A program made the position numbers and the translations under genes. Below are positions 6,701-64,000 of a DNA stretch of 64,000 bases, piece after piece (within the stretch, counting starts at the first letter, position 1; the number at the start of each line of letters is the position of its first letter). This DNA comes from an uncultured Bacilli bacterium (GTDB taxonomy: Bacteria > Bacillota_I > Bacilli_A > RFN20 > CAG-826): positions 30,602-94,601 of the forward strand of contig CAKPJO010000001.1 in NCBI GenBank assembly GCA_934162685.1, read 5' to 3'. The notes beneath the pieces were generated by a model, which did not search any database, was not told the DNA's origin, and worked only from the letters and a program-made list of their open reading frames with translations.

Positions 6701-7479
6701 AGATAGAAGGTTTAATTTCAGGTTCTGGAATTCACGCTTCTGCCGTTTACTTCTTTCCTGATGGTTATATTAATTGTTGTTCTATGATGCGAGCCCCAAA
6801 CGGTACCCGTATAACAGGATTTGATTATAGAGCGGTTGATGCTTGTTCGGGATTAAAAATGGACTTTTTATATACCGATTGTCAAACTAAATTAATGAAA
6901 ACAATGGACTTATTATTAAAATATAATCAAATTAAATGGCAAGGTTCTTTAAGGGCTACTTATAATAAATATTTACATCCAGATGTATTAGATTATAATA
7001 ATCCTGAAATGTGGAAAAGAATGCAAGAAGGACAAATATCTAATTTGTTCCAATTTGATAGTTTACAAGGGGCCATTTGTATTAAAAGAACTCGTCCTGA
7101 GAATGTAAAACAATTAGGAGCAGCAAATGCTGTTATGAGATTAATGAGTTCTGATGGTGGAGAAACTCCATTAGATAGATATGTACGTTTCAGAAATGAT
7201 ATAAGCGAATGGTATAAAGAAATGGATGAATATGGTTTAACAAAACACGAGCAGTCTCTTCTTGAAAGATATTTATTACCTAAGTTTGGCAATTCTGTAG
7301 AACAAGAAGATATGATGCAAATTGTTCAAGATCCTGAAATTTCTAACTTTACATTAGGAGAAAGCAACAAGTTTCGTAAGGTGGTGTCCAAAAAGAAACT
7401 TAAAGAAATTGAAAAATATAAGAAATTATTCTTTGAAAAAAATAAAGATCCAGAGGTTTCAGAAGAACTAGATTTTTAG
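3721..7479 (+). CDS. dnaE: DNA polymerase III alpha (DnaE-like) N-terminal cistron containing an intein; PHP domain plus palm/fingers
   Basis: PHP motifs (HNHTMYS, ITDHE). Catalytic MPDVDIDIS aligns with DnaE MPDFDVDF. LKMDFL, NLFQFDS and MMQIVQ blocks match DnaE. Ends at the position where DnaE continues with ...KFAGYGFNKSHS. Confidence 0.8.
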   Translation: MTPVGVCYRKVEILMYCSLHNHTMYSNLKLLDSINRIPDMINKAIEYGFNGLAITDHEILSGHVEALEYADKIKKDHPDFKVILGNEIYLIKEKEYKQPETKFWHFLLIAKDLTGYMQIRKLSSKAWDRMYVSKGQKRTPTFYEDFEAIIGNDKGHIIMSTACLGSYLNDCFIRHDLEEIKFYINWMVKTVGKENAFLEIQDSDSIEQQNYNKFILKLGKQLNLKVIVTQDAHYLNKEDLQIEKTFLNSKQEGDREVDAFYKYTYMKPESEIKQILSYLPVEDVQQAIDNTQIIYRMIQPYDIRKDTIIPQRKLPSFQLKHLLKEWYEQEENIKAFAESLWDQDRFLLHLIEQGIEEKNFKVTKLEADRINTELGVLKYITERVHQPMSAYLNLVQEIINLMWEVSFIGVSRGCFTEDAQILMGDGSYKSIKDVQEGDLVYTHLGRIKKVLQTHQYNVNERLYTIKVRGRPAFTCTNNHQIFGSHQGSCKAPGSKNVYCSGKCKRFSTCPYATGEAIQAHWIEAQNLKKGDFVTTPKFNFANPTSNLIDLMKYIPESSAVGENQFYYKRKDDRYCSGIVKKFIANRYSQWTPGLARLVGYFIGNGWTRKKDDKSNSIIQFGLAFHSEATEKINDCVNLIENELHLSYKIRPSSRRKVVQIIVGNKPWANFFAAECGIGSHNKKIPYKIFTDLTLAKECMRGLILTDGSTDLKRRRFKYSTISPMLQKQVFYLLNLLKYNSFMNEFDKRQENWEPERTNCLSGTQLLKFCEEFNLGTPMTSQLAYTRQDFEEDEQYYYNKIENIETKNFQGIVYDLTVEDDTSYIVNGCAVHNSAMSFLINYLIGIVQVNPIPYDVPYWRFMNTASIPTLTPEEIKAGKKLSIAATMPDVDIDISPTKANEVMDIMRQHYGEDNILNTLTYKKESLKAALNSCGRGLGLLPEETHYLSSLVPTSRGHVYSLQECEEGDEEKGFEAHPEVIQAIQKYPGLYEAVKKIEGLISGSGIHASAVYFFPDGYINCCSMMRAPNGTRITGFDYRAVDACSGLKMDFLYTDCQTKLMKTMDLLLKYNQIKWQGSLRATYNKYLHPDVLDYNNPEMWKRMQEGQISNLFQFDSLQGAICIKRTRPENVKQLGAANAVMRLMSSDGGETPLDRYVRFRNDISEWYKEMDEYGLTKHEQSLLERYLLPKFGNSVEQEDMMQIVQDPEISNFTLGESNKFRKVVSKKKLKEIEKYKKLFFEKNKDPEVSEELDF
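4960..6216 (+). mobile_element. intein (419 aa) with a LAGLIDADG homing endonuclease domain, inserted in the GRGS palm motif of DnaE
   Basis: Starts CFTEDAQILMGDGS (block A) and ends VHN followed by S (+1). LAGLIDADG blocks LVGYFIGNGW and GLILTDGS. Flanking VSRG|...|SAMSFLINYLIG matches DnaE GRGS-AAGSLVAY. Confidence 0.8.
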
Positions 7480-7508
7480 AAGGGAAAATATTTCCTTCTT
7501 TTTTTATT
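7477..7508 (+). terminator. intrinsic terminator after dnaE part 1
   Basis: AGAAGGGAAAatatTTTCCTTCT hairpin plus T8; the T-run runs into the -35 TTGACT. Confidence 0.6.
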
Positions 7509-7550
7509 GACTTTTAAAAACATTTGTGTATAATAAATAGTGTAAAAAGA
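7507..7550 (+). promoter_or_regulatory. sigma-A type promoter P2 (TTGACT-18-TATAAT-AAATAGTGTAA)
   Basis: Consensus hexamers plus the conserved downstream box AAATAGTGTAA. Confidence 0.6.
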
Positions 7551-7563
7551 AAGGAACCAAATT

Positions 7564-7731
7564 ATGAAAACTATTAGAATATTTGTTACACTTAAACAAA
7601 ATGATATAATTAATATTCCTGATGACGCATCAGATAGTGAAATTGATGCAATAGTTGATAATTATGCTAGTGAGTTAGCAGAAAACGCGGGAATTCAAAA
7701 GTATGAAGTTGAGTGGCAAGAAGATTATTAA
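7564..7731 (+). CDS. small acidic hypothetical protein (55 aa)
   Basis: ATG with AAAGGA RBS immediately after P2. Below the ORF-track cutoff. Confidence 0.4.
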   Translation: MKTIRIFVTLKQNDIINIPDDASDSEIDAIVDNYASELAENAGIQKYEVEWQEDY

Positions 7732-7744
7732 GGAGAGTTAAATT

Positions 7745-7927
7745 ATGAGTTCATCAAAAAAATATATTATAAAAATATATTCAGAACAACCTTTAAATGG
7801 AGTTTGGAAAGGTTATATTAAAGTTGATATTGATGTAAAATGTTCTGAAGGAATTGAAAGAAAAACAAGAATATTCTCAAAAAATGAATGGGAAGAAATT
7901 AAAAAATTTGGATATTATTTAGGATAA
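7745..7927 (+). CDS. hypothetical protein
   Basis: RBS GGAGAG, compact array of early ORFs. Confidence 0.5.
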   Translation: MSSSKKYIIKIYSEQPLNGVWKGYIKVDIDVKCSEGIERKTRIFSKNEWEEIKKFGYYLG

Positions 7928-7944
7928 AGAAAGGAAACAACATT

Positions 7945-8316
7945 ATGAAAAAAGAAGAATTATTTAAAGCGGAAACATTTGATTATATTTGTAAACTAAT
8001 TAAAGAAAAATTAACAAAATCTATGAAAGGTAATAAACAAGTAAGTATTTTAGAAATCAAAGCATATAATTTATCAACAAAATCCAATGATTTTGAAAAA
8101 GAATTACAAATTAAATTTTCTATAAATCTAAATCCAGAAATTTTTTGTTCAATGGTATATATTGATGCTGTTTGGTACTATGATTTATTTGATGCAAAAG
8201 AATTTGCTTCAATTGTTGCGAGCAATGTTTTAAAAAAATCAGTTAAAAATATAAGCATTGCTGAAAAAGACAACGATAGTAATATATTTAGTGTTTATAC
8301 ACGAAATGATAAATAA
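7945..8316 (+). CDS. hypothetical protein
   Basis: RBS AAGGAAAC 8 nt upstream. Confidence 0.5.
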   Translation: MKKEELFKAETFDYICKLIKEKLTKSMKGNKQVSILEIKAYNLSTKSNDFEKELQIKFSINLNPEIFCSMVYIDAVWYYDLFDAKEFASIVASNVLKKSVKNISIAEKDNDSNIFSVYTRNDK

Positions 8317-8339
8317 ATAGAAAAACGAGGTTACATATT

Positions 8340-8546
8340 ATGAATAGAAAAAGTATATTATTAATTAGCTTAACAATTATTGCTATGCTAGGTATAGTTG
8401 TAGGAATTGCATTTATTTGTAGTAAATTCATCATCCGTCCATACAATACCATTGTTACTATGATTTTAAGTTATTTAACAGGATCTTGCGGGAACGCGGT
8501 TATTAATTATATTCTTGAGAAAGAAGGTTGTCAAAATGAAGAATAA
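8340..8546 (+). CDS. small membrane protein (paralog A)
   Basis: Two TM helices. Paralogous to 8515..8736 (SILLIxLTI...GNxVxNxIxxKEG). Confidence 0.5.
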   Translation: MNRKSILLISLTIIAMLGIVVGIAFICSKFIIRPYNTIVTMILSYLTGSCGNAVINYILEKEGCQNEE

Positions 8547-8736
8547 AAGAAGTATTTTATTGATTATCTTAACAATTGTAGTTATGTTTCTATTAGGAGC
8601 ATTAATTGTATGGGGAAGTTGTTCTATTCTTCTTTACCCTTGGAATGTTATATCAACTATGTGTTTAAGTCTTGTTGTTGGTTTAGCAGGTAATAGAGTG
8701 CTAAATATTATTATTGATAAAGAAGGGAAAAACTAA
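8515..8736 (+). CDS. small membrane protein (paralog B, tandem duplicate)
   Basis: Same architecture as 8340..8546; start overlaps the previous gene. Confidence 0.5.
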   Translation: MRKKVVKMKNKRSILLIILTIVVMFLLGALIVWGSCSILLYPWNVISTMCLSLVVGLAGNRVLNIIIDKEGKN

Positions 8737-8737
8737 A

Positions 8738-9010
8738 ATGATACATAAAAAGGAAAAAGAAGAAATTGAAAATTTGTTAGAAGATACCTTTGTTGGCAGT
8801 TCTGACGCATTAGAATGGTTATCTGAAAAAGGATTTGTTGAAGCTGACAAATGTTATTATTATTGCTATTCTGATAAAAATGGTAATTACATTGGTAATG
8901 ATAGTGATGATGATCCTTATGACATATTAGAAATACTTTTAAAAGATATTGATTATGATGAATTTATGACAAAATTTAATGAAGAATTCGGAGATGAAGA
9001 TAATGGATAA
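8738..9010 (+). CDS. acidic hypothetical protein
   Basis: ATG at 8738 with AAGGGA RBS. The ORF-track start 8714 is less likely. Confidence 0.45.
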   Translation: MIHKKEKEEIENLLEDTFVGSSDALEWLSEKGFVEADKCYYYCYSDKNGNYIGNDSDDDPYDILEILLKDIDYDEFMTKFNEEFGDEDNG

Positions 9011-9245
9011 TATAAATTGGAAAGAAAAATATATGGATGAACATATTAAAGTTCAAGATTTAGAGTCTAAAGTTGATGTTTATGAAAATATTACAATTCC
9101 TAGATTGAAAAAAGAAAAAATAAAAGTATTAAAAAAAGTTGTAAAGCAATTAAAAGAATGTACATCATTCTTTATGACGGTTGATGAATCCGATGTAGAT
9201 GATGTGATTGAATATTGTGAGAGTATTATAGAAAAGGGAGAATAA
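8979..9245 (+). CDS. hypothetical protein
   Basis: Overlaps the previous stop; the start may be the internal ATG at 9003. Confidence 0.4.
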   Translation: MKNSEMKIMDNINWKEKYMDEHIKVQDLESKVDVYENITIPRLKKEKIKVLKKVVKQLKECTSFFMTVDESDVDDVIEYCESIIEKGE

Positions 9246-9248
9246 ATT

Positions 9249-9422
9249 ATGAAAAATATTATAGTATATACAACAGTATATCATAAAAACTTTATTAAAG
9301 TTGAAGATGATGTTTATGAAGACGAAGATAAACTTCAAGAAAAAGCTAGAGAAATTGCTAATAAAATTGCAGGCAATAATGATTATGATTATGAATATGA
9401 ATTAGATGAAGAAGAAGAATAA
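9249..9422 (+). CDS. small acidic hypothetical protein (57 aa)
   Basis: RBS GGGAGAATAAATT-ATG. Below the ORF-track cutoff. Confidence 0.4.
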   Translation: MKNIIVYTTVYHKNFIKVEDDVYEDEDKLQEKAREIANKIAGNNDYDYEYELDEEEE

Positions 9423-9425
9423 GAG

Positions 9426-9620
9426 GTGATAGAAATGAACAAATGTGATTTTTGTAATTACTATGACCCATTTCAAAATAAATGTGGCTGTGCTTATTCT
9501 CCTAAAAATTGTACAGAAGCTATTAAAGCTTACTCACAAGTATTAATGAGTCAAAACAAGAATACTAAAACTAAAAACGTTAATATTAATAAAAACAATA
9601 ATAAAACGAAAGGAAAATAG
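9426..9620 (+). CDS. small Cys-rich protein (CDFCNYY...CGC...C)
   Basis: RBS GAGGTG; Cys cluster suggests metal binding. Confidence 0.45.
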   Translation: MIEMNKCDFCNYYDPFQNKCGCAYSPKNCTEAIKAYSQVLMSQNKNTKTKNVNINKNNNKTKGK

Positions 9621-9622
9621 TC

Positions 9623-10183
9623 ATGAGTAAAATAAAAATTGATCAATATACAAAAATGTTATTAGATGACATCATTTTACAAAGTAAGAAAGATGACGAT
9701 CCTGTTAAAAGCTTTTGTTTAGAATTTGTGTTTTATAATCAAGAAGAATGCTGGATTACTACAACCTATCAAAGTGGAAAAATAGACGAGGAAAAATATT
9801 TGGACAAGACTATGAACCAATTGGCTCTAGATCAATGTCCACTCGAAGGAAATCATATTGTTCTTCCAGCTGATTATGAGAGTGTTATCGATCCAAACAT
9901 TGTTGAAAATTTTCCAGGCTGGTCGAAAACGTATACGTTAGATTTAAGTAATATAGGAATTTTAACTGATAAAGAAAAAGAATATTTAAAAGCTGTAATT
10001 GAACCATATAGATTACTGGTCTCAGATATAAGTAAAATAGTTGGTTGGAATCATGATCCAGAACAAATTTTTGTTTATTTAGATTGTGGAGATCCAATTA
10101 CCTTTCCAATCATTTTACCAGAATTAAAATTTTCAGGAATGGAATTAAATAAGAATTATACTTTAGAAGATTTAGGAATATAA
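9623..10183 (+). CDS. hypothetical protein
   Basis: Coupled start (ATAGTCATG). Confidence 0.5.
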   Translation: MSKIKIDQYTKMLLDDIILQSKKDDDPVKSFCLEFVFYNQEECWITTTYQSGKIDEEKYLDKTMNQLALDQCPLEGNHIVLPADYESVIDPNIVENFPGWSKTYTLDLSNIGILTDKEKEYLKAVIEPYRLLVSDISKIVGWNHDPEQIFVYLDCGDPITFPIILPELKFSGMELNKNYTLEDLGI

Positions 10184-10196
10184 AGGAGAAAAGAAA

Positions 10197-11081
10197 ATGA
10201 AAATTAGTAATAAAACTTATAATGTATGTAGTCACTTTATACATTTATTTGAATCATTTGATTATAAAATAGGAAGTATTATTCTACGTAGGAATGAAGA
10301 CAGAGAAACAAATTTTTATGAAATTAGTTTATCTTTTTCGGGCAAAGATAATTCTAATAAACAATTTCAAACATCTGTATCAATGATTGATGAGGAAATG
10401 CATACAATATTATGTAAAAGGAGCAGAGACTTTTTGATATGTGATGATGTAAAAAGTTTACGTTTTCATTTTAATAATGTCCCATCTTTGTCTGATATTG
10501 AGAAGTATCTTTTAACACAGCTCTTTAATTATTATCATATAACAGAGGGAACGATTATGAAAAAAAGTAATCATCTTATCATTAAAACTAAAAATCCTTT
10601 TGAAGGAATAGAAACTGACATTGAAATAAATTTGTCTTTAAAGCCATTAAAAGACAATAATTTTAAAGAGCTGGAAGAAGAATATGAATATTTTATTGAG
10701 GATTTAGATTTAGGAGAAGATACAAGAAAAGCAGCATTGTTAAATCAAACGTTGTCAGCGTGCGATTGTATTTATCAAAATGGAAGAGTTCTCTATAAAG
10801 GCAATTTTAAAATTTCATTTAGTGAATTTTTAGATAAAGATAATGTTTTTATTCATTGTAAAACAAGAGATGACTTTGATTTCCTTATGGATAAATTAAT
10901 GGAAGCAACTCCTGGTAATATATTCTATAATGTTAATAAAGGCATCGAGGGTGTTTGGTATGATTATGGTGAAGATAGCTGTGTTAAAAATGATGGAACA
11001 GGGATGAAATACGAATATTGCAAAGCTTCAAAAAACAATTATGCTATTTATGAATTTGACGAATTAGATTTTAGTAAATAA
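10197..11081 (+). CDS. hypothetical protein with a C-terminal (A)IHCxT...YEFDELDF domain (family member 1)
   Basis: RBS AAGGAG. C-terminal ~90 aa is similar to 11098, 11395 and the 25823 C-terminus. Confidence 0.55.
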   Translation: MKISNKTYNVCSHFIHLFESFDYKIGSIILRRNEDRETNFYEISLSFSGKDNSNKQFQTSVSMIDEEMHTILCKRSRDFLICDDVKSLRFHFNNVPSLSDIEKYLLTQLFNYYHITEGTIMKKSNHLIIKTKNPFEGIETDIEINLSLKPLKDNNFKELEEEYEYFIEDLDLGEDTRKAALLNQTLSACDCIYQNGRVLYKGNFKISFSEFLDKDNVFIHCKTRDDFDFLMDKLMEATPGNIFYNVNKGIEGVWYDYGEDSCVKNDGTGMKYEYCKASKNNYAIYEFDELDFSK

Positions 11082-11097
11082 TAAGGGCAATAAAAAT

Positions 11098-11379
11098 ATG
11101 AAAATTAAATTAACTGAATTTTGGAATAGTAAAGAAAATCTTGCTATTCATTGCAATACGAAAGAAAAAGCAAATGAATTATTAAAAGCTTTTGATAGGC
11201 TTGGTAAGAAATGGAGTAATGGTATGAGTTATTTGGATGTTGATTATTATACTCTTGATTATGGTCTTTACTATAGGAACACTTGTTATTCAAATCATAA
11301 TAAATTTCATGGATATTCAAATTATAAATCACATGACTATACAATTTATGAATTCGAAGATGTTGATTTAAAAAATTAA
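11098..11379 (+). CDS. small protein of the AIHC(D/N)T...YEF(D/E)DVDL family (member 2)
   Basis: LAIHCNTKEKANELL...LGKKWSNG...TCY...IYEFEDVDL. Confidence 0.55.
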   Translation: MKIKLTEFWNSKENLAIHCNTKEKANELLKAFDRLGKKWSNGMSYLDVDYYTLDYGLYYRNTCYSNHNKFHGYSNYKSHDYTIYEFEDVDLKN

Positions 11380-11394
11380 GAAGGAAAAATCAAA

Positions 11395-11691
11395 ATGGAA
11401 AAATTAAATTCTAAAAAGAAAATTACATTAACAAAATTTTTAGACGATTATGATAGAGATTTGGCTATTCACTGTGATACTGAAATACAGGCAAGAATAT
11501 TACAAAAAACAATTCGTAAATCGCTCAAAAAAAGATGGAATATTAAAATATCTGATCAAAAAGATACTTTTTGTAGATGTTATAAACGAGACACCTGCTA
11601 TGACAATGATAATTGCTGTGGATCTCGTGATTGGTACGAAACGATGGGTTATTTAATCTACGAATTTGATGAAGTTGATTTAGATAAATAA
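11395..11691 (+). CDS. small protein of the AIHCDT...YEFDEVDL family (member 3)
   Basis: LAIHCDTEIQARIL...KKRWN...TCY...IYEFDEVDL. Confidence 0.55.
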   Translation: MEKLNSKKKITLTKFLDDYDRDLAIHCDTEIQARILQKTIRKSLKKRWNIKISDQKDTFCRCYKRDTCYDNDNCCGSRDWYETMGYLIYEFDEVDLDK

Positions 11692-11747
11692 AAGACCTCT
11701 TTTATTTAGTGGAACTTGTGCGTAAAAAGCATAAGTTCTTTTTTTAC

Positions 11748-11790
11748 TTGACATTTACAAATATTTATATATAATTTAAGTAAGTAAGAA
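11748..11790 (+). promoter_or_regulatory. sigma-A type promoter P3 (TTGACA-16-TATAAT)
   Basis: Consensus hexamers upstream of the 11804 ORF, homing endonuclease and dnaE part 2 cassette. Confidence 0.55.
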
Positions 11791-11803
11791 AGGGTGATAT
11801 CAA

Positions 11804-12025
11804 ATGAAAAAGATTATTATTATTTGTAACGACAAAGTTATTTCAGAACACGAAACATCAGATGTATATTATGATGCAATGATGAAAGAATGTGAAAGAC
11901 AACTAAATGAAGGAACTCTAGATAGTAGAGTGTTTGAGTTCAATGAAAAAGAACAAGCTAAAATCACTAAATATATAGTGAACAATCTCATATATAAATT
12001 AATAGATAAGAAAGAAGTTGAATAG
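11804..12025 (+). CDS. hypothetical protein
   Basis: RBS AAAGGGTG. Confidence 0.45.
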   Translation: MKKIIIICNDKVISEHETSDVYYDAMMKECERQLNEGTLDSRVFEFNEKEQAKITKYIVNNLIYKLIDKKEVE

Positions 12026-13031
12026 AATGAATTTTGAAAATAGAGAATATAATAAACCTTCGCAAATTGAATATGAAGGTACTTTAACTAAAAATAGGAA
12101 TCAAAGGCCTACTTGTGACCAAAAGTTTTTAGACTGGTGTGTGGCTAATGCAGAACGTTTTAGCTCTTATTATACTATGGCTAAAGCATTAGGACTTGAT
12201 GGCAGGGCTTTTCAACGTTTAATAGAAGATTATAACATTACATTAACATTTGATAGTAAAGCTGCTCATACTCCTAAATTATATCAAGATTATGACTGGT
12301 TATATAATCAAATTGTTACTTTAAATAAGTCTCGTAAGCAAGTAGCTGAAGAAAATGGCTGGACAGTTAGAGTTTTAGAAAAATGGATGGGCATTTTAGG
12401 AATTAATAGAAGAACATACCAAGATTTAAAACAAATGTCTGATAAGCAAAGAGATTTAATTAAATTCTCATTATTAGGTGACGGATGTGTTTCTGATACA
12501 GGATTTTTTATTGTGTCTCATAGTGAAAAGCAAAAAGATTATTTATATTGGAAATATGAAATGTTGAAAGATCTTTGCTCGCATGAACCGACACGATATG
12601 ATGAGAGTGTTAAAATAATTAACGGAAAAGAAGTTAATTGCGAACCATATTATAGATTTAATACTAGAAAATTAAAGGAATTGTTTAATCTTAGAGAAAT
12701 GCCAATAGAACAAATTGTTAATGATTTAGATGAATTTGGTTTGTCAATTTGGATGTTGGACGATGCTAGCCGAGATGCTTCTTGGAAGTTATGTATAGCC
12801 GCTTATCCTGAAGAAACTAGAACATTTATTGTAAATTATTTTAAGGATAAAGGTTTTTTATCTGCTAAAGTAAGGCTATATGATACAAGATATGTGGAAT
12901 TTAATGCTGACGACAGTAGAAAAATAGATGCTATAATTTTGCGTAACATTCCTCACAATTTAGACATTATACAATATAAAATTATAAATAATAGTAGAAT
13001 TAAATCACCAAGGAGGGGAAATAATGGCTAG
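12018..13031 (+). CDS. free-standing LAGLIDADG homing endonuclease with an N-terminal DNA-binding region
   Basis: Two LAGLIDADG-type motifs (LLGDGCVSD, WMLDDASRD). Located exactly at the junction that splits dnaE; overlaps both neighbours. Confidence 0.7.
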   Translation: MNRMNFENREYNKPSQIEYEGTLTKNRNQRPTCDQKFLDWCVANAERFSSYYTMAKALGLDGRAFQRLIEDYNITLTFDSKAAHTPKLYQDYDWLYNQIVTLNKSRKQVAEENGWTVRVLEKWMGILGINRRTYQDLKQMSDKQRDLIKFSLLGDGCVSDTGFFIVSHSEKQKDYLYWKYEMLKDLCSHEPTRYDESVKIINGKEVNCEPYYRFNTRKLKELFNLREMPIEQIVNDLDEFGLSIWMLDDASRDASWKLCIAAYPEETRTFIVNYFKDKGFLSAKVRLYDTRYVEFNADDSRKIDAIILRNIPHNLDIIQYKIINNSRIKSPRRGNNG

Positions 13032-14583
13032 GCGTCTTTTCCTAGATTATGTCTGGGGAAAATGCATTCAACCACAAGTAGGATACGCCTTTTCTTTGCC
13101 GCACGATATTAGTTATTCTATAGAAGCCGTCCAAGAAGCTAATTTAGCAACAAGATATAACCCTCTTTTTTGGGAATGTGCTTGCCTTTGTATCAACGCA
13201 GGAAATACGGAAACAGGATTTGAAGAAGACGATGATGAAGAGCAAGACGAGGAAGAAAAGAAAACTAAATCAGGAGCACCATCATATGGTAAAATTTCAA
13301 AAGCTTTAACCGATTGTAGGCTTCACGGTGTAAATATTGAATTTCCAAACATTAATACATCTCAAGCAGATTTCGTTCCTGATATTGAAAATAATAGTAT
13401 TTTATATAGTTTAAAGACTGTTACAAATGTGAGCGATGATTTATATTCACAAATCATTCAGAATAGACCTTATTCATCAATAGAAGATTTCTGTTCTAAA
13501 GTATCTGTTACACCAGCACAAATGTCCAGTTTAATTAAAGCTGGTTGCTTCAATTCTTTATATAAGATGTCAAGACGAGCAATTCTCTATGCTTATTTCA
13601 ATTATTTAGCAAATCAAGAAATAATCCTTAAAAAAACATTGAACTTATCTCATTTAAAGAAAGCTTTGTCTCTTGGTGAGAAATTTCCAGGTTATGAAGA
13701 TAAAATTCAATTATTATATTTTAAAGTATACATTGATAAAAATCAAAAATTAGATCCTAGTAAAGAGGCATTCTCACTTAATGCTTTATTAAATAAGAAA
13801 TGTTATAAACTCACGGAAGAATCTTGCATCAGCTTTTTCAATATGAAAGTTGCGCCTTCATTAGATTTAAGAAAAGGTGATTATGATTATTTAGATGGAC
13901 ACACAATATTATTAAAAGCATCAAGCTTTACAAAATTCTATGATGCTCAAATGAAAGAATTAACTGATTATCTAAATTCTGAACAAGGTAAATTAGTATT
14001 TCAAAAAATGGAAAAAGATGCTTTTATAAAAGATCTTATTGAAAAATACGCAGAAGGAACCGAAGCTGACTGGGATATGCAAACAATGAATTTTTATCAA
14101 TCTGAACACGCACTTGCTAGAATGTCCGAAATAAAGTATAACATTAAGAATTTTAATAAATTACCAGAAACGCCTATAACACGTAAGTATATAGGTAAAG
14201 ACGGAGAAGAAAAAGAGACAGCTGAAACTTGTGCAATATGTGGTACAGTTGTAGATGCTAATAATGTTAAACACGTGGTAAGTTTATTAACTAAGTATGG
14301 AGTGGTTAATGTTAAATTATTCTCACAAGCATATTCTAATTTTAGTCAAAAGATAAGTATTGTTGAAGATGCCGCCAAAAAGAAGAAAACAGTTTTAGAC
14401 GACTCTTGGTTTAAAAGAGGAACGAAATTAATTATTCACGGGTTCAGAAGAGAAAATATGTTTGTTGCTAAAACTGAATATGTTAATAAAGTTCCTAAAA
14501 TGGTAGGATTAATAGAAAGTTTAGATACAAACGGAAATGCTTCTATTAGATACACAAGAAAGAAGAAAATTAGTCAAGAATAA
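13024..14583 (+). CDS. dnaE: DNA polymerase III alpha (DnaE-like) C-terminal cistron; fingers/HhH/beta-binding region
   Basis: [32 protein letters not shown] aligns with DnaE [46 protein letters not shown] aligns with GLKILPPDINSG. Continues the alignment where 3721..7479 stops. Confidence 0.75.
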   Translation: [519 protein letters not shown]

Positions 14584-18045: not shown

Positions 18046-19296
18046 ATGGCAGAAGAAGAATACAAGCGTGCATTAGCACATGTCGAAAAAGTAGTAGATA
18101 TTCAACCTATTGAAGGAGCAGATCGAATTGTTCTTGCAACTATTTTAGGTTGGAAAGTAGTAGTTAAAAAAGATGAATTTAAGGTAGGAGATTTAGCAGT
18201 TTATGTGGAAATTGACTCTGTTTTACCTGCCGATGATGTGAGATTTGAGTTTTTAAAGAGCAAAGATTATCGCATCAAAACAATGAAACTAAACAAATTC
18301 AAAGTGTTTAGTCAAGGAATTGCGTTCCACGTTAACGAATTTCCAGAAATTAAAAATCCTGCTGAAGGAATGGATGTGACAGAGGTTCTAAAGATTACGA
18401 AATATGAACCATATGAACCACCAGTTAAATCTCTTTCTTACAAAGAAGCTAAAAATAAGAGAATGTTTGCTCGACATCCTAAATTTTTCCAAAGTAAATT
18501 TGGTAAATTTGTCAGAAAACATCCTACTTTATTAAAGATATTTGAACATTTCTGGGGCGGCAAAAATATTAAACCTAAGAAATTCCCTGATTGGATTAGA
18601 AGAACTGACGAAATCAGATGTGAAAATATTGCAAATATTTGTTCTTATAAAAAACCGCTTTTAGTAACGTGTAAAGTTGATGGTTCAAGTACAACTTTTG
18701 CATTAAGATTTAAGAATGAAAAACATAAGAAATATGAAATATTTGTATGTTCTCGTAATGTGCGTATGTTAACCGAAACACAATCTTGTTACTTTGAAAC
18801 AAACGTATATTATGAAATGTTTAAAAAATATGATGTTGAAGAATTCTTAAAGGCAACAGCAAATCTGTTACAAGCAGACTTTGTTATTTTACAAGGTGAA
18901 ACATATGGCGATAAATTACAAGGAAATCCTTATAAAATGGATTATGTTGATTTTAGAGGTTATAACTTAATTTATGGTTATATGGAAGGAACAAAGCAAT
19001 TTAAAGCAAATGTTAATAACCCACTATATCATAGAGTAGGAGACACTATTCAAACACGCATCAATAGTATTAAAGCTAAAGAAATGTGTGAAATTCATGA
19101 TATTAAATGGGTTCCAATTTTAGAAGAGAACTTCATTCTTCCTGATACAATGGAAGAATTAAAACAACAAGCTACTGGAGCATCAGTTATTAATCCTAAA
19201 GTATTAAGAGAAGGACTTGTTTATCGTTCAACGACTGATCCAGAGTTCTCATTTAAAAATGTTTCAAGAGAATATTTACTAAGCAAGGGGGAATAA
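18046..19296 (+). CDS. ATP-dependent RNA ligase-like protein (nucleotidyltransferase KxDG family)
   Basis: Motif I CKVDGSS, motif IV-like REGLVYR, C-terminal Lys motif; N-terminal nucleic-acid-binding-like domain. Confidence 0.55.
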   Translation: MAEEEYKRALAHVEKVVDIQPIEGADRIVLATILGWKVVVKKDEFKVGDLAVYVEIDSVLPADDVRFEFLKSKDYRIKTMKLNKFKVFSQGIAFHVNEFPEIKNPAEGMDVTEVLKITKYEPYEPPVKSLSYKEAKNKRMFARHPKFFQSKFGKFVRKHPTLLKIFEHFWGGKNIKPKKFPDWIRRTDEIRCENIANICSYKKPLLVTCKVDGSSTTFALRFKNEKHKKYEIFVCSRNVRMLTETQSCYFETNVYYEMFKKYDVEEFLKATANLLQADFVILQGETYGDKLQGNPYKMDYVDFRGYNLIYGYMEGTKQFKANVNNPLYHRVGDTIQTRINSIKAKEMCEIHDIKWVPILEENFILPDTMEELKQQATGASVINPKVLREGLVYRSTTDPEFSFKNVSREYLLSKGE

Positions 19297-25822: not shown

Positions 25823-27187
25823 ATGCTAACAAAAGAAAAATTAGAAGAAATCGTAAGTAGACCTGAATATGATTTTCTAAGAACTAATCCTCGATTAAAG
25901 GATAAAATCTTATTCTTGACTGTCGGAGGCAGCTATGCTTACGGAACCAATGTTGAAGGTTCAGATATCGACATTAGAGGAGTTGCGATGAATAGCATCG
26001 AAGATATTTTAGGTGGTACAACATTTGAACAATTTCAAAATGATGAAACCGATACAGTTATTTATTCAGTCAATAAGTTTATTAAATTGGTAACTGATTG
26101 TAATCCTAATGTTATTGAAATGTTATTTTGTGAACCTGCTCAATACATTTGGGTATCTCCATTAGGACAATTATTATTAGATAACAAACATCTATTTTTA
26201 TCTCAAAAAGCTTATTATACCTTTGGTGGATATGCTAGAGCTCAATTAAATAGATTAGAAAATGCTTTATGTAGAGGCAATTACTTCACACAGGCACAAA
26301 AAGAAGAGCACATTGCAAGAAGTGTAGAAAATTCTATTGATAGCTTTAGTGAAAAATATTCAGCAATGATACAAGGCAAAGGAAGCATCAAACTTCATAC
26401 TGATAAAGTAGATGAAAATGGCGATAGGATCATCACAACTGATATGACAATGAAAGATGTTCCTTTAAGAGAAGTTCGTTCTATGTTAGAAGAAATGACT
26501 AATATTGTAAGAGATTATGACAAGTCTGGTGGCTGGAGAAATACTAAGAAAGATATTCCGCACTTAAACAAGCATATTATGCATCTAGTAAGACTATATT
26601 ACATGGGTATTGAAATTCTAGAAACTGGTGCTTTACATACTTATAGAAGTAAAGAACATCAATTATTAATGAGCATCAGAAGTGGATTATTCTTAGACGA
26701 AAAGAATAATTTAAAACCTGAATTTTACACCGTATTAAATGATTTAGAAAATAAGTTAAAAACAGCTTTAGATAATAGTAAATTACCTAAAAAAGCTAGA
26801 CGAGATGAAATCAAACAATTACAAATTAAAATTAATTTATTAATGATTAAAATGGGTGCCTATAAAGAATATATCTTGACTGAGTTTGATTTAGATGAAA
26901 AAGAAAAAGTTGTTAATAATAAAAACTATAAAATTACCTTATCTGAAATTTTAAGTATGAACCCAAGCTATACTGCAATTCATTGTGATACCGAAGAAAA
27001 AGCCAATAAATTATTAACAATTTTAAATAAATTAGGACAAAAATGGATTAGTGGAGAATCATATTTAATAAATAACAACTGGAGGTCATACAAAACCCAA
27101 ACTTGTTATGGCTTAGATGGATCATATGGAATTTCTAAATGGTACGATGATGTTTACGAATTCGATGATATTGATTTAAATAATTAA
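25823..27187 (+). CDS. Pol-beta-superfamily nucleotidyltransferase fused to a C-terminal AIHCDT...YEFDDIDL domain (family member 4)
   Basis: NTase signature GGSYAYGTNVEGSDIDI (GS...DxD). C-terminal 90 aa AIHCDTEEKANKLL...LGQKW...TCY...VYEFDDIDL. Confidence 0.6.
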   Translation: MLTKEKLEEIVSRPEYDFLRTNPRLKDKILFLTVGGSYAYGTNVEGSDIDIRGVAMNSIEDILGGTTFEQFQNDETDTVIYSVNKFIKLVTDCNPNVIEMLFCEPAQYIWVSPLGQLLLDNKHLFLSQKAYYTFGGYARAQLNRLENALCRGNYFTQAQKEEHIARSVENSIDSFSEKYSAMIQGKGSIKLHTDKVDENGDRIITTDMTMKDVPLREVRSMLEEMTNIVRDYDKSGGWRNTKKDIPHLNKHIMHLVRLYYMGIEILETGALHTYRSKEHQLLMSIRSGLFLDEKNNLKPEFYTVLNDLENKLKTALDNSKLPKKARRDEIKQLQIKINLLMIKMGAYKEYILTEFDLDEKEKVVNNKNYKITLSEILSMNPSYTAIHCDTEEKANKLLTILNKLGQKWISGESYLINNNWRSYKTQTCYGLDGSYGISKWYDDVYEFDDIDLNN

Positions 27188-27606: not shown

Positions 27607-29073
27607 ATGGAAAGAAAAGATATTGAACAACTTATAAAATACACTTTACCAACTGAGGTATTCACAATCTTTAACACTTTAGAAAATAAAGGTTTTGAAA
27701 CTTATTTAGTGGGCGGAAGTGTGAGAGACATGTGCTTCAATGCTATTTTTCACGACAATAAAGACGCTCGTTATCGTAACGTTCACGATTTTGATTTTGC
27801 AACCGCTGCTCTTCCTGAAGAAATTATAGAAGTTTTTAAAGATTATGAAGTAATTCCAACTGGGTTAAAACACGGCACTGTTACAGTCAGGATCAACCAT
27901 CAAAATTTTGAAATAACAACATTCAGAATAGATGGTAAATATGACGATTTTCGTCATCCTAACTCTGTATCATTCACCAGATCTATAGAAGAAGATTTGA
28001 GCCGTCGCGACTTCACAATGAACGCTATTGCTTATAGTCCAACAAGAGGTTTAGTCGATCCTTTTAATGGTATTGGAGATCTTGATAATATAAGATGTGT
28101 TGGAGACCCAACCCAAAGATTTCGAGAAGATCCTTTAAGAATTCTTAGAGCATCACGCTTTGCTCTTCAATTTATGATACCTATTGAAATCAATACATAT
28201 GAAGCTGCTCAACAAAACGTGAATTTAATTCATCATTTATCAAAAGAAAGAGTAACTGATGAATTCAAAAAAATGTTAAATATCGATCCTTTAAACATTA
28301 CTTATTCTATATTTAGAACTTATTATGGCTTTATTTTAGAAGAATACTTTCCAACATTAAAAGAATACGCAAATTTTCGTCCTACTTTGAATAAAGAACC
28401 TCAAATTTGGAATAAATATCTTCGTATACAAGACCATCAAGTTAATGTGTTTTTAAGAGTGAGATATTTATATCCAATGTTTGATTTTGCTCTTTATTTG
28501 GCTGCTTTATGTCACGACTTAGGAAAACAAAATGCAGAAACAGTAACTCTAACAGACGACAAAATTAAAATATATCATTATTATAGACATCCAGAAGAAA
28601 GTCTTAAAATTTTTGAACAAGAAGTATTGCCTCGTTTATCATTATCAAAAAGAGAAATTGACGAAGCCAGAACATTAATTTTATATCATGATATGCGTAT
28701 TGCCCCTACTAAAAAATCAGTAAAAAAAGCTTTACAAAAAATGTCCCCATTAATGTTATCTTTATTATTTAAATTGCAAGAAGCTGACCTTGATGACCAT
28801 GAATTTGCTAATTTATTAAGAAAGAAAAATACATATCGTGATTTATATGTGACACAATACATCGCCTCAGAAATTCATAAAGATATTCAAGAATGCTTCA
28901 CCATAAAACAACTTAAAATCAATGGTAGAGACCTTCTAAATTTAGGAATAGAACCAGGCCCCAAAATTGGTAAAATTCTTAAAGAATTATTAAAGAAAGT
29001 TATTGATGAAGAGATTCAAAATGATCCTAGGTCTCTCTTACAATATGCACAACATTTAGCCACAAAAGAATGA
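27607..29073 (+). CDS. cca: CCA-adding enzyme / tRNA nucleotidyltransferase (class II, with HD domain)
   Basis: Head motifs LVGGSVRDMCF and RRDFTMNAIAY. HD-like LCHDLGK in the C-terminal half. Confidence 0.7.
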   Translation: MERKDIEQLIKYTLPTEVFTIFNTLENKGFETYLVGGSVRDMCFNAIFHDNKDARYRNVHDFDFATAALPEEIIEVFKDYEVIPTGLKHGTVTVRINHQNFEITTFRIDGKYDDFRHPNSVSFTRSIEEDLSRRDFTMNAIAYSPTRGLVDPFNGIGDLDNIRCVGDPTQRFREDPLRILRASRFALQFMIPIEINTYEAAQQNVNLIHHLSKERVTDEFKKMLNIDPLNITYSIFRTYYGFILEEYFPTLKEYANFRPTLNKEPQIWNKYLRIQDHQVNVFLRVRYLYPMFDFALYLAALCHDLGKQNAETVTLTDDKIKIYHYYRHPEESLKIFEQEVLPRLSLSKREIDEARTLILYHDMRIAPTKKSVKKALQKMSPLMLSLLFKLQEADLDDHEFANLLRKKNTYRDLYVTQYIASEIHKDIQECFTIKQLKINGRDLLNLGIEPGPKIGKILKELLKKVIDEEIQNDPRSLLQYAQHLATKE

Positions 29074-60961: not shown

Positions 60962-61654
60962 TTAAAGTGTAATTTCTGTTTGAACGAATGAAGAAAGGAC
61001 GGCGGGGTTACAATCACCGATAATAATATTTTCGGAAGGGACGATAAGATGTCCTTCGTGCCAAGGAAGGCGGAAACAAGCGATGGGGTTATTTGAACCA
61101 ACGACTTGGAAATCTAAGTGATAGGTATCGTGAAGTGTTTTAACTAAGCTTTCTTGAACGGAAGGTTTTTTTGTATCAAGCCCTGCTATGTAAAAGATGA
61201 ACTTGCGGTCATACTTAATCCAATGTGAATGATGTGGATTCATCGCGGCATAGACGGCGAAAGCGGTAAGAAGACGTCGAATGTCTGGAGAGGTTTCGTG
61301 GTGCTCATAAAATGTGTTGTTTAGGTTTTTAATGTCGATAGGATTAATAAGAAGAACGCGTGAACGCGACTCTGCTACTTCGGCGCGTTGAAAGGCGGGG
61401 AAATAGAGAGTGGCGATACGTGAAGCCGCTTGACGTGAAAAACCCAACGAGGAGGATAGGGCATCTTGAATTGCAAAGAGCGACTCTGAGGGAGATACGG
61501 AACCTCCTTTGCTTTTATAAATGTCATAGAGGAAGCGCCAGGTGTAGGGCTCAAGAGGTCCTACGAAAGTGACGCTTTCTTGTTTTTGGGATGGTGTGTT
61601 GTTTATATTTGTGCTGTTATTATTATTGTTAGTACTATTATTATCTGTTGTCAT
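60962..61654 (-). CDS. hypothetical protein (Asn-rich N-terminus)
   Basis: Start reset to ATG 61654 (AAGGAGG plus 9 nt). The ORF-track start 61708 lies inside the upstream gene. Confidence 0.5.
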   Translation of the reverse strand: MTTDNNSTNNNNNSTNINNTPSQKQESVTFVGPLEPYTWRFLYDIYKSKGGSVSPSESLFAIQDALSSSLGFSRQAASRIATLYFPAFQRAEVAESRSRVLLINPIDIKNLNNTFYEHHETSPDIRRLLTAFAVYAAMNPHHSHWIKYDRKFIFYIAGLDTKKPSVQESLVKTLHDTYHLDFQVVGSNNPIACFRLPWHEGHLIVPSENIIIGDCNPAVLSSFVQTEITL

Positions 61655-62936
61655 TTTGAAAAGAACCTCCTTGTTTAAATTCATTATTAATAACATTATT
61701 AATAACATTATTAATATCTTGTTCTATGGCATCGTGAGGGGCAAGATAGTCATCATCATAACCGAAGAGGCCATTAAGCATACGTTGAATGGAAATCTCA
61801 AGTTGAGGAGTGACTTTTTTAAGGGAATATTTGACACCAAGATATTCGGTGCCGTTTGGATCTCTTATCGGGCAATAGGAATCGCCGTATGGAATAAGAG
61901 AAACAATTTGGTCTTCTAAGACGTCCCAAGCGAATGCCCAATTAAATGTTGAATAAAGAGGTGCTAAACGAGAGCAATAGAAGAGGAATTCATCACCAGA
62001 CATGTTATGATCAACGAGTTGATTTTGAAGGTCGCCGATAAGTGATTCTATGAGAGAAGAGCGAAGCTCGGAATAGGTGTCTGGGGAGAGGTCGGAGAAT
62101 TGAGAAGAAGAGAGGGACTCAAGATGTTTGATTTGTTTACGGGCAATATAAATTTTATAAAGCGAACGTACGAAGTCTAATTTTTCTTGGGAGAAGAGGG
62201 GGGCGTAATGCGCTTCGAAAGTTGGAAGCATTGATACGTTTTTCTTCTTAGCGTCGCCATTTTTGGCAAACTTGATGTCGAAATCAACATTCTCGAATTC
62301 GCGACATAATTTATTCATTGTACAATTTGAGGTGATAAGGGGCGAATACTTTTGATATTTACGCACAAGATTTGTTTCTTCTGGAGTTTTGTTTTCTTTA
62401 CGAAGCAGTTTCTTAAACTTAATGCCGAACATATCGCGACTTACCTCGTTATAGGCGGACTCAAACTGTTTAAAGCGTTGATTAAGCTCTGGATAGAGAT
62501 AGCGGAAGAAGTAAGGTTTTTTAGAAATAACCATGGCATTATGTTTAAACTTTGCGAGGCGTTCTTCTGGAGTATCATCTTCTGTTATTTGTTCAAAATG
62601 TTTCCAAGAATGAGGGAGAGACGGTTTGTCGGCTCCTTTAATACGGTCAATTTCTTGACCAACGATTTCACGTAAGAGCTTAATACGTGTCATAATTTCG
62701 TTATATTGATCTTGTTGTGCTGGATTATCGAAGATTGCTGCCATTGCATAGAAAATAGTGGCGCAATTCGAGAAGCCTCCAACGCCTGTTCCGAAACCTT
62801 TGGAAACGGTTTTAGTTATGTTTGCGACCGTCATTTTTTGGACGGGGGCAATGCCTTTTTCGTATGTTATAATATTTTGTTCTTTATGAGATCCTTTTAA
62901 GAAGTAAGGGTTGTCTGTGGATAGGACTATATCTCC
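61641..62936 (-). CDS. 3' exon of an intron-split gene; candidate large-subunit (beta-prime-like) fragment of a phage multisubunit RNA polymerase (speculative)
   Basis: The reading frame stays open upstream of the first ATG (62834) to ~62936. If spliced to exon 1, the junction reads ...RLSDADYD|GDIVLSTDNPY..., resembling the beta-prime catalytic NADFDGDQMAV motif. The exon boundary is approximate. Confidence 0.4.
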   Translation of the reverse strand, partial: GDIVLSTDNPYFLKGSHKEQNIITYEKGIAPVQKMTVANITKTVSKGFGTGVGGFSNCATIFYAMAAIFDNPAQQDQYNEIMTRIKLLREIVGQEIDRIKGADKPSLPHSWKHFEQITEDDTPEERLAKFKHNAMVISKKPYFFRYLYPELNQRFKQFESAYNEVSRDMFGIKFKKLLRKENKTPEETNLVRKYQKYSPLITSNCTMNKLCREFENVDFDIKFAKNGDAKKKNVSMLPTFEAHYAPLFSQEKLDFVRSLYKIYIARKQIKHLESLSSSQFSDLSPDTYSELRSSLIESLIGDLQNQLVDHNMSGDEFLFYCSRLAPLYSTFNWAFAWDVLEDQIVSLIPYGDSYCPIRDPNGTEYLGVKYSLKKVTPQLEISIQRMLNGLFGYDDDYLAPHDAIEQDINNVINNVINNEFKQGGSFQNDNR

Positions 62937-63346
62937 CGATGATACCCTCGGTTTCCCGATATTTATAGGAGAAGGGGACTAGACTATATCTTAGCTAATT
63001 AATAACTGTTTGGGGGTCATTAATCAGATGTTGGCACTTCGATTTAATGGATTTTATAATCAAGCTAATATCACCTGATAGCCAACCTTGTTTAAGGGCT
63101 CTACTCTACTCATTTATTTTTAACAGATTTTCTCTATTAATATACTTTCGATAGTCGTTTGAGTTTTTAAACCTTTTATGTAATTTGATTTAACTTACCA
63201 CAGGATTGTCGTCTCCTTTACGAGTTACGAGTTCCCTGTTAGCAATGCTATTATTCGCCATTATCCTGCGAAACACTTCACGTTAGCATTACACCCAGAT
63301 TTACTAATCTGGTTCACCAACTTTTACTATGACTAGTAATATGTCA
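62937..63346 (-). mobile_element. group I intron (ORF-less, ~410 nt; boundaries approximate)
   Basis: In gene sense: the 5' exon ends with U (gaT|TGAcat, in-frame stop at the intron start). R-like element CAAACGACTATCG (plus 63149-63161). S element AAGATATAGTCT (plus 62981-62992) about 45 nt before the proposed terminal G. GACUA/UAGUC can form P7. Confidence 0.6.
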
Positions 63347-64000
63347 ATCATAGTCAGCATCGCTTAAGCGAGCTGTAGCAGCATCATATGTGCTGAATAC
63401 TATTCCAGAATATAGGTGGCTTAACCACCGCTTCGCCTCGTCAGAGTTTAATACGTCTGATGGGTCATGTTCGTGCATATCAATTTGAGGACTTCGACAG
63501 AGATCAACTCTCGGTACATTCCTATCGCTCCAGAATTTAGAATATATTTGATCTCTTCCAACTACCCCTATTGGCTCTAAACCTAGTGCAGATTGACATT
63601 GGGCAACAGGATCTGACAACATAAACTGATAATTTCCATGAACCCAGATTTTGCCTATTTTGGCGCGATTAATGGTTTCAGTGATATTTTTATAAATCTT
63701 ATGTTGAATATAACTATCTTTAAGGAAGTTGTTGTTTTTAACCAATGCTTTCATATAATTTGTTTGAGCAGTTCCATAAAGAGTATTAAACATAGAGTCT
63801 TCGTTTTTGGGCCCAAATGTAAATAGAAGTGTTGAAAGAGTCTCACCTGTACAAATTTGTTGTATCCAATCTACAGTCGGTTTAATAAGACTCTTAATGT
63901 CATCATTCGATAAAGTTAATGATTGAATGTATTGATAGTTTGCAAGAATATATTCTTCATCTTGTTTCTTTGGATAACGGGCAACTCCCCAAGGAATATC
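63347..64000 (-). CDS. 5' exon (partial, continues beyond the window) of the intron-split gene
   Basis: Open frame on the minus strand through the window end. C-terminal ...RSPQIDMHEHDPSD...RLSDADYD precedes the intron. Confidence 0.5.

Follow-up and report, generated by a model that had tools for sequence, protein, structure and literature searches.

A group I intron in the catalytic aspartate motif of a YonO-like phage RNA polymerase gene

Group I introns are known from conserved motifs of essential phage genes, among them td, nrdB and sunY of T4, the DNA polymerase gene of SPO1, and orf142 and nrdE of Twort, and they are also found in the Bastillevirinae (PMC11878797). In the Pseudomonas phage ΦPA3, a group I intron with the HNH endonuclease gp210 sits in the gene for the β-subunit of the virion RNA polymerase (vRNAP), just past a pair of conserved Asp codons, and mediates interference with ΦKZ (PMC11620839). 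In crAss-like phages of the zeta group, a LAGLIDADG intron endonuclease lies in the transcription gene block (bioRxiv 10.1101/2020.07.20.212944). The presence of mobile group I introns in the catalytic motifs of essential phage genes, RNA polymerase genes included, is established, and the locus described here leaves that understanding unchanged. It lies in a 64,000-nucleotide (nt) stretch of DNA from an assembly of an uncultured Bacilli bacterium (contig CAKPJO010000001.1, positions 30,602 to 94,601; hereafter the window, whose own numbering we use). On the minus strand of the window, a 410-nt stretch without an open reading frame (ORF), from 63346 to 62937, is a group I intron that splits a phage RNA polymerase gene inside its catalytic D-Y-D-G-D (DxDGD) motif, with the second Asp codon on one side and the Gly codon on the other. 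As a case of a mobile intron residing in an essential gene of a phage, it is well supported but fairly ordinary. The polymerase resembles YonO, the processive DNA-dependent RNA polymerase that transcribes the late genes of the Bacillus prophage SPβ and whose activity is abolished by mutation of its Asp triad; the paper describing YonO does not mention introns (PMC5467207). Our literature search found no paper combining "group I intron" and "YonO" and no report of an intron in a YonO-like gene.

The reading frames on either side of the insert define the junction. Exon 1 (63347 to 64000, minus strand) is partial, the gene continuing past the end of the window. Its frame enters the window at 64000, corresponds to residues ~356 to 573 of P0001 (a homologue 75% identical to the window protein), contains ...CRSPQIDMHEH...ATARLSDADYD and ends ...GAC TAT GAT, with the final U at 63347. 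Directly after this GAT codon, intron bases 1 to 3 (63346-63344) form an in-frame UGA. Exon 2 (61641 to 62936, minus strand) starts with GGA GAU, which specifies the Gly-Asp of DxDGD, and supplies the last ~431 residues of the protein, ending in a stop codon at 61643-61641; its frame is open from ~62978 and reads GDIVLSTDNPYF... from 62936. Between the exons, no minus-strand ORF of at least 40 amino acids lies within 62937-63346, and stops occur in all three frames. An initial annotation of this DNA, made from the sequence alone, had described an interval devoid of ORFs, an upstream exon ending in U followed by an in-frame TGA, and a downstream frame open from about 62936, and we found all three as described.

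Conceptual joining of GAU to GGA yields ...SDADYD/GDIVLSTDNPYF... (the slash marks the junction) within the peptide ...SDADYDGDIVLSTDNPYFLKGSHK... When this spliced protein was aligned with 12 intronless homologues (28-75% identity), there was no gap across the junction, which upholds the earlier proposal that the intron lies inside a DxDGD metal-binding motif. The Asp triad (D216, D218 and D220) is invariant in the 13 sequences only once the gene is conceptually spliced. Among PHROG profiles, phrog_8308 spans the junction unbroken, phrog_25339 stops at it and phrog_35857 starts shortly past it. In L126, a 96%-identical relative, exon 1 extends upstream as a single unbroken block covering P0001 residues 8-573, and the gene consists of two exons only, which together cover residues 8-966. 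Because an unspliced transcript meets the UGA after the second catalytic Asp, the enzyme would be made only after RNA splicing.

For the intron family we used a covariance model, R1, made from seven compact copies (261-291 nt) on unrelated contigs, none of which came from a polymerase gene as far as we could determine. In the seed alignment of these seven introns, 92.2% of cells were paired, against 32-49% when the 3' partners were slid by one to three columns, and 42 of 74 pairs had changed on both sides, against 9-14 after sliding; none of 500 shuffles reached the observed values. Searched against both strands of the window, R1 gave a single match (62980-63325, minus strand; 97.7 bits; E value, 1.6e-26) that covers the full length of the model (positions 1-284). 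This E value, together with the covariation, excludes a chance match. R1 also matched 16 of the 18 interrupted polymerase loci described below (the exceptions are L003, from Clostridium phage c-st, and L177) and none of seven uninterrupted ones. A scan with an invariant 14-mer returned mostly chance matches; 44 places passed a flanking-motif filter, seven of them already in hand, and the 37 others are further copies of the same RNA at other places. For the introns at the same site as that of the window, plain MAFFT alignment of six introns misaligned P7 of the window copy, and column trimming broke real helices; we used an anchor-based alignment.

At its gathering threshold, Rfam reported no RNA family anywhere in the window, and it likewise gave no intron match in any of the 12 related loci tested, including the split terminase gene of Staphylococcus phage PALS_1, a shortfall at default thresholds that the family model R1 would fix. 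Members of the intron family nevertheless score 53.0, 49.5, 45.0, 36.5 and 31.1 bits on the Rfam Intron_gpI model (RF00028), only the first exceeding the gathering score of 50, and it is these scores of 31-53 bits that tie the family to the curated group I model. The 31.1-bit member, L171, is a compact intron at exactly the site occupied in the window.

The anatomy of the window copy can be followed from one splice site to the other (all coordinates refer to the minus strand). The last 8 nt of exon 1, ACUAUGAU (63347 to 63354), form the 5' strand of P1 and pair at eight of eight positions with the internal guide sequence GUCAUAGU (63326 to 63333), which is the 3' strand of P1 and had escaped the initial annotation. 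U63347, after which the 5' splice site falls, is thereby placed opposite G63333, and such a U·G pair is the mark of a group I 5' splice site. In the same-site relatives L171, L175 and L179, three compensatory changes in P1 track the exon (AUUUCGAU with GUCGAAAU or GUCGAAGU). The 5' strand of P3, GUUGGU (63316 to 63321), pairs with GCCAAC (63030 to 63035), which stands just after the family-invariant UUAAAUCGAAGU. All six P3 pairs form in the window and in every same-site relative through different sequences (AAUGGU/GCCAUU, AGUAGU/GCUACU and UGUAGU/GCUACA), and compensatory changes affect four of the six pairs in the seed family (helix 1). Two hairpins occupy 63244 to 63312, between the P3 5' strand and J3/4: CCAGAU/AUCUGG at 63312-63295 and AAUGCUA/UAGCAUU at 63290-63244. 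The second encloses an inner stem, UUCGC/GCGAA, and carries a conserved loop, AGGA(U)AAUG. The corresponding seed helices 2-4 have compensatory changes in 3 of 5, 7 of 7 and 4 of 7 pairs.

J3/4, with the sequence UAA, connects these hairpins to P4. The P4-P5-P5a domain (63200 to 63239), covered by the Rfam P4-P6 alignment, has a P4 of ACAGGG/UCCUGU, with CUAACAGGGAA and CAAUCCUGUGG as its classical P and Q elements; it is followed by P6 (GGU/ACU) and P6a (UUAAAUC/GGUUUAA) at 63162 to 63199. The R element CAAACGACTATCG (63161-63149) comprises J6/7 and the P7 5' strand GACUAU (63156-63151), and the S element (AAGATATAGTCT/AAGAUAUAGUCU; 62992-62981) includes the P7 3' strand AUAGUC (62987-62982), so that R, S and P7 lie where they had initially been annotated. 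P7 covaries, reading GAUCAU/AUGAUC in L179 and showing two covarying pairs in the seed family (helix 10). Between P7 and the P3 3' strand, peripheral hairpins of the P7.1/P7.2 type, enlarged in this copy, fill 63048 to 63148 (CCUU/AAGG at 63097-63086 and UGG/CCA at 63084-63048); the family has three hairpins in this region, and they covary in the seed (helices 11-14). P8 (62995 to 63027) is a 12-bp hairpin, CUGAUUAAUGAC/GUUAUUAAUUAG, with family covariation in six of seven pairs (helix 15). The P9.0/P9 module (62937 to 62977) is made of CCC...GGG around UCGG-GAAA-CCGA, with P9.0/P9 and its GAAA loop at 62977-62945, and the terminal (omega) G at 62937 is followed by the 3' splice site; all seven same-site relatives end in G too. 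An unconstrained minimum-free-energy fold recovered P1, the two hairpins, P4-P5 and P8 (z = -2.4).

The two hairpins that follow GUGAAC were at first read as P2/P2.1, with P3 placed before J3/4, a reading that was dropped because no conserved partner exists there. RNAalifold and the covariation put the P3 5' strand upstream of the two hairpins, and this layout is family-wide: the P3 5' strand, a pair of conserved hairpins (in one of which the loop, AGGAAAUG, is invariant), J3/4 and P4, with P3 formed by columns 5-10 and 259-264 of the seed alignment, A3. The Rfam alignment treats the two-hairpin stretch as a 47-nt insertion. P2 is absent from the window copy, and those relatives that possess it have it upstream of the P3 5' strand. 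The IA2 traits of covarying hairpins at the P7.1/P7.2 position and of P9.0/P9 are present, but there are three such hairpins, there is no P2, and there is an insertion after the P3 5' strand. In our own reading of the sequences, made without a GISSD comparison, this layout appears to match no described subgroup.

By its sequence relatives and its modelled fold, the host gene is that of a single-chain, YonO-like two-barrel RNA polymerase of the Pfam PF05183 "RdRP" lineage. Its nearest database relatives are single chains of ~960-1000 amino acids with PF05183. P0001 matches that family with an E value of 2.7e-10 (40 bits; cut-off, 23.8), and full-length homologues with 54-75% identity score 36-45 bits against the same cut-off. 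The window fragment (649 amino acids, without the N-terminal third) has no Pfam match, its first barrel being encoded past the end of the window. In the Spbetavirus BUCT082, the orthologue of YonO is 27% identical over 600 residues (E value, 5e-82) and has SDFDYDI where the window protein has ADYDGDI, and the existing annotation of c-st already names both halves of its split gene as YonO homologues. A search of the Protein Data Bank with the family profile gave only a marginal match to RDR2 (E value, 0.12), and a comparison of folds was therefore needed. In the AlphaFold model of P0001 (pLDDT, 83; pTM, 0.79), the two-barrel (double-psi-beta-barrel [DPBB]) fold is present in one chain. Its best Foldseek matches were plant RDR2 and fungal QDE-1 (E values, 9e-16 to 6e-12; TM scores, 0.35-0.47), followed by the phage P32 gp64 RNA polymerase and the crAss-like phi14:2 gp66 virion polymerase; matches to β' chains had E values of 0.026 or worse and probabilities of at most 0.28.

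The initial annotation had compared the motif and the R-x-P...H segment upstream of it with the NADFDGDQM region of β' and had proposed a highly diverged multisubunit RNA polymerase of the phiKZ/AR9 type. The resemblance to β' is real, because the protein belongs to the DPBB RNA polymerase superfamily, and homology does hold at that level; the protein is not, however, a diverged β' subunit. The multisubunit identity is ruled out by the single-chain homologues, by PF05183 and by the fold matches, which favor RDR2 and QDE-1 (E value, ~1e-15) over β'. Neither the window fragment nor P0001 contains any Rpb1/β' Pfam domain, and there was no companion β-like subunit gene among the 27 window ORFs screened, a subset of the ORFs in 64 kb of the genome; as the enzyme is single-chain, no other RNA polymerase subunits are needed or expected. 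By analogy with YonO, the polymerase is predicted to be DNA dependent and would transcribe the late genes of the phage.

Compared with YonO of SPβ (PMC5467207), and with PF05183, QDE-1, RDR2 and crAss gp66, the gene is homologous, with the Asp triad at the same position and the same predicted fold class. It differs from YonO of the SPβ type, which has D-F-D-Y-D and no intron, in that its lineage has D-x-D-G-D, as do β' and the eukaryotic RNA-dependent RNA polymerases, and in that the C-terminal half is specific to its lineage. A conserved gene of ~250 amino acids stands after the polymerase gene in BUCT082 (4773-5609 in locus L001), c-st (5060-5890 in L003), MT835481 (4178-4933 in L002) and PMBT24 (4553-5275 in L004), and the c-st copy is annotated "YonO-homolog C-ter only." In the window, the follower is a 248-amino-acid ORF (60962-61708, minus strand) that overlaps the polymerase stop by 68 nt and has no BLASTP similarity to these genes.

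We next compared the gene among relatives, using a protein-guided scan of IMG/VR that yielded 78 loci. About a fifth of these viral loci (16 of 78) are interrupted, and Clostridium phage c-st and the gut contig MT835481 bring the number of split loci to 18. All 18 are interrupted within the same five-codon motif, at one of two insertion points 5 nt apart. Site A, between the second Asp and the Gly codons, is used in the window, L126, L171, L175, L179, L191, MT835481, c-st and CB473P3. Site B, 5 nt upstream and after the first base of the Phe/Tyr codon, is used in L164, L166-168, L173-174, L177 and L180-183, as in L166 (2995-3313), where the context is GAC U/...G/UU GAC GGA GAU (slashes mark the intron ends). 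The occupants of site B belong to the same ribozyme family (79-90 bits with R1), apart from L177, which has a different 258-nt intron instead. The c-st genes CST179 and CST178 (annotated "YonO-homolog, N-ter only"; AP008983) are split like the window gene, at D-M-D/G-D, by a 317-nt insert without an ORF that ends ...UAUAGUCUAGUCCC...GGAACG. The c-st insert departs from the window intron in its 5' half and gives no R1 match at an E value of 0.01 or better, and the locus is annotated as two genes rather than as an intron.

Presence of the intron varies even among close relatives. In cultured phages of Enterocloster bolteae, the PMBT24 gene is uninterrupted, CB473P3 has two introns and CB473P1 has only the downstream one; over the first exon, the PMBT24 and CB473P3 proteins are 99% identical. 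The paper on PMBT24 does not mention introns. The site-A intron of CB473P3 (OP172757, 2345-2771) scores 117.8 bits with R1. The downstream introns occupy a third site ~93 codons further on, at a conserved ...EIDRIK/GA... (3060-3524 in L322, CB473P3, OP172757; 2027-3151 in L323, CB473P1, OP172755). They score 36 to 64 bits with R1, the CB473P1 copy contains an ORF, and the window gene is uninterrupted at this position. Longer copies of the intron carry endonuclease ORFs in the P6a loop: NUMOD4 plus HNH_3 in MT835481 (2174-2863), LAGLIDADG_3 in L175 (4846-5643) and in L191, and, in L164 and L180, NUMOD3 preceded by a GIY-YIG-like N terminus. There is no endonuclease gene in the window copy or in that of its 94%-identical relative L126.

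We consider it very probable that the insert is a functional group I intron whose removal restores DYDGD. In the mechanism that we propose, an ORF-less intron of the phage IA type, 410 nt long, is transcribed between the second Asp and Gly codons; the guide sequence GUCAUAGU would then pair with the final 8 bases of exon 1, an external guanosine would attack after U63347, the terminal G62937 would dock next, and the exons would be ligated as GAU-GGA, restoring the Asp triad. Translation of an unspliced mRNA would stop at the UGA that opens the intron and would give a truncated, presumably nonfunctional protein without the third Asp. The intron probably reached this almost invariant coding sequence through endonuclease-mediated homing, and the window copy would since have lost, or would never have had, its endonuclease gene.

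Several observations weigh against this reading. In E-value mode, Intron_gpI reaches only 15.8 bits (E value, 0.23; P4-P6/P7) and 11.3 bits in the window against a cut-off of 50. The copy has large lineage-specific expansions in P7.1/P7.2 and P8, which could in principle impair folding; we reached no assignment for its first hairpin after P7, and a P10 pairing with exon 2, sought by eye, gave nothing convincing. The N-terminal third of the gene lies beyond the window, and we infer its integrity from L126. The Rfam shortfall arises because ~110 nt of insertions, in the P7.1/P7.2 region and P8, fall outside the Rfam model. The Intron_gpI search proposed in the initial annotation, which would have taken the lack of a group I covariance-model hit as refutation, gives a false negative at the Rfam threshold. 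The insert might still be a decayed, non-splicing group I remnant and the polymerase gene a pseudogene in this phage, a reading that the low Rfam score, the unusually large peripheral insertions and the missing endonuclease gene would all fit. We think this improbable, given that all core helices are intact in the window copy, that the independently derived R1 aligns with it end to end at 97.7 bits, and that both exons have long open frames in which family-invariant residues are kept. L126, moreover, retains the same intron with few base differences, mostly in loops or preserving pairing (for example, a G·U pair in P8 that becomes G-C).

Alternatively, the gene might be truly split, with two polypeptides that assemble without RNA splicing like the products of the split β/β' genes known from jumbo phages (PMC7598289). 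An ATG at 62834 does open a 397-amino-acid ORF, and annotators called the halves as separate genes in c-st and CB473P3. Such a division, however, would part the first two catalytic Asp residues from the third inside a five-residue motif and would discard 34 conserved in-frame residues (GDIVLSTDNPYF...VQK) upstream of the ATG; the spacer is a conserved, covarying ribozyme fold, and closely related phages have the gene uninterrupted. We therefore give this arrangement hardly any weight. Just as hard to credit is some other mobile element, be it an IStron, a group II intron, an intein or a miniature inverted-repeat transposable element, or a chance match to group I motifs. IStrons with IA2-type ribozymes do occur in c-st (PMC4227781), and a HEARO/IscB-type RNA adjoins the same gene in relatives, but the 410 nt contain no transposase, insertion sequence ends or ORF, Rfam gave no group II or other family match, and chance is excluded as set out above. 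An intein is ruled out because no frame is open throughout the 410 nt. The initial annotation called the intron well supported, and the R1 match and a P1 with eight of eight pairs, U·G among them at the 5' splice site, bear this out.

A functional group I intron at this position would have much in common with phage IA2-type introns (PMC11878797). Like them, it is a self-splicing-type ribozyme in highly conserved codons of an essential gene, with a U·G pair at the 5' site, a terminal G, a P/Q/R/S core, additional hairpins separating P7 from the P3 3' strand, a peripheral loop as the seat of any endonuclease ORF that is present, and variable presence. Unlike them, it resides in a YonO-like RNA polymerase gene, lacks P2, and places two hairpins between the P3 5' strand and J3/4. 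With the ΦPA3 intron it shares a phage two-barrel RNA polymerase gene as host and an insertion directly after conserved Asp residues. The host gene in ΦPA3, however, belongs to a multisubunit enzyme, of which it encodes a β-like subunit, whereas here the motif is the β'-equivalent Asp triad of a single chain. ΦPA3 also has a homing endonuclease able to cleave an intronless allele in a co-infecting relative; the window copy has none.

A broader scenario, which we regard as unlikely but worth stating, is that, in phages infecting gut Clostridia, the codons for the Asp triad of YonO-like polymerases are a contested homing hot spot, with at least three ribozyme lineages, two insertion points and three endonuclease families. 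The endonucleases might then disable the late-transcription enzyme of co-infecting intronless relatives, as in ΦPA3, splicing might time or gate late transcription, and the ribozyme family might form an undescribed structural subgroup. Cultured Enterocloster bolteae phages that differ only in intron presence offer a ready system for the study of splicing, homing and intron-mediated interference among gut phages. If the late-gene polymerase depends on a ribozyme reaction, that dependency could be exploited or regulated. The intron also matters for annotation, in that YonO-like polymerase genes have been deposited as two or three "hypothetical proteins" (for example, in c-st, CB473P3 and MT835481).

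The 3' end of the intron has relatives of its own. An insertion that splits the terminase large-subunit gene of PALS_1 (Twortvirinae) has a 3' end 87.5% identical to window positions 62935-62990, and the P9 21-mer ATATCGGGAAACCGAGGGTAT (window 62945-62965) occurs exactly in more than 120 viral contigs of IMG/VR (L006-L125). By an exact-anchor filter, most of the 120 loci with this 21-mer have only that module in common, and their other core segments differ; since they share the module alone, we did not use them as family members. A P9 module common to introns with differing cores suggests that phage introns exchange the 3' end as a module.

HEARO is an RNA associated with IscB-type HNH ORFs. 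A HEARO RNA (RF02033) lies directly 3' of the YonO-like gene in L126 (6334-6548; 111 bits), L166 (4541-4753; 140 bits) and L164 (1008-1221, minus strand; 95 bits). Relative to the window, L126 has a 1.6-kb insertion (6316-7892) that contains this RNA; in the window, Rfam at its gathering threshold gave no HEARO match.

Elsewhere in the window, on the plus strand, 3721-7479 is a DNA polymerase III alpha-type gene (PHP, DNA_pol3_alpha and finger domains) whose product has an apparent intein at residues ~411-832 (Pfam Hom_end_hint/Hint, LAGLIDADG_3 and Intein_splicing). This polymerase itself looks split, with 3721-7479 corresponding to positions 1-361 of phrog_12219 and 13024-14583 (plus strand), which has HHH_6, to positions 360-815. 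The ~5.5 kb between the two parts (7479-13031, plus strand) holds small same-strand ORFs, and a LAGLIDADG_2 endonuclease ORF (12018-13031) abuts the second part; R1 has no match there. Further plus-strand genes at 18046-19296, 25823-27187 and 27607-29073 match PHROG families for an RNA ligase, a nucleotidyltransferase and a tRNA nucleotidyltransferase of the CCA-adding type, and possibly constitute a tRNA-repair set.

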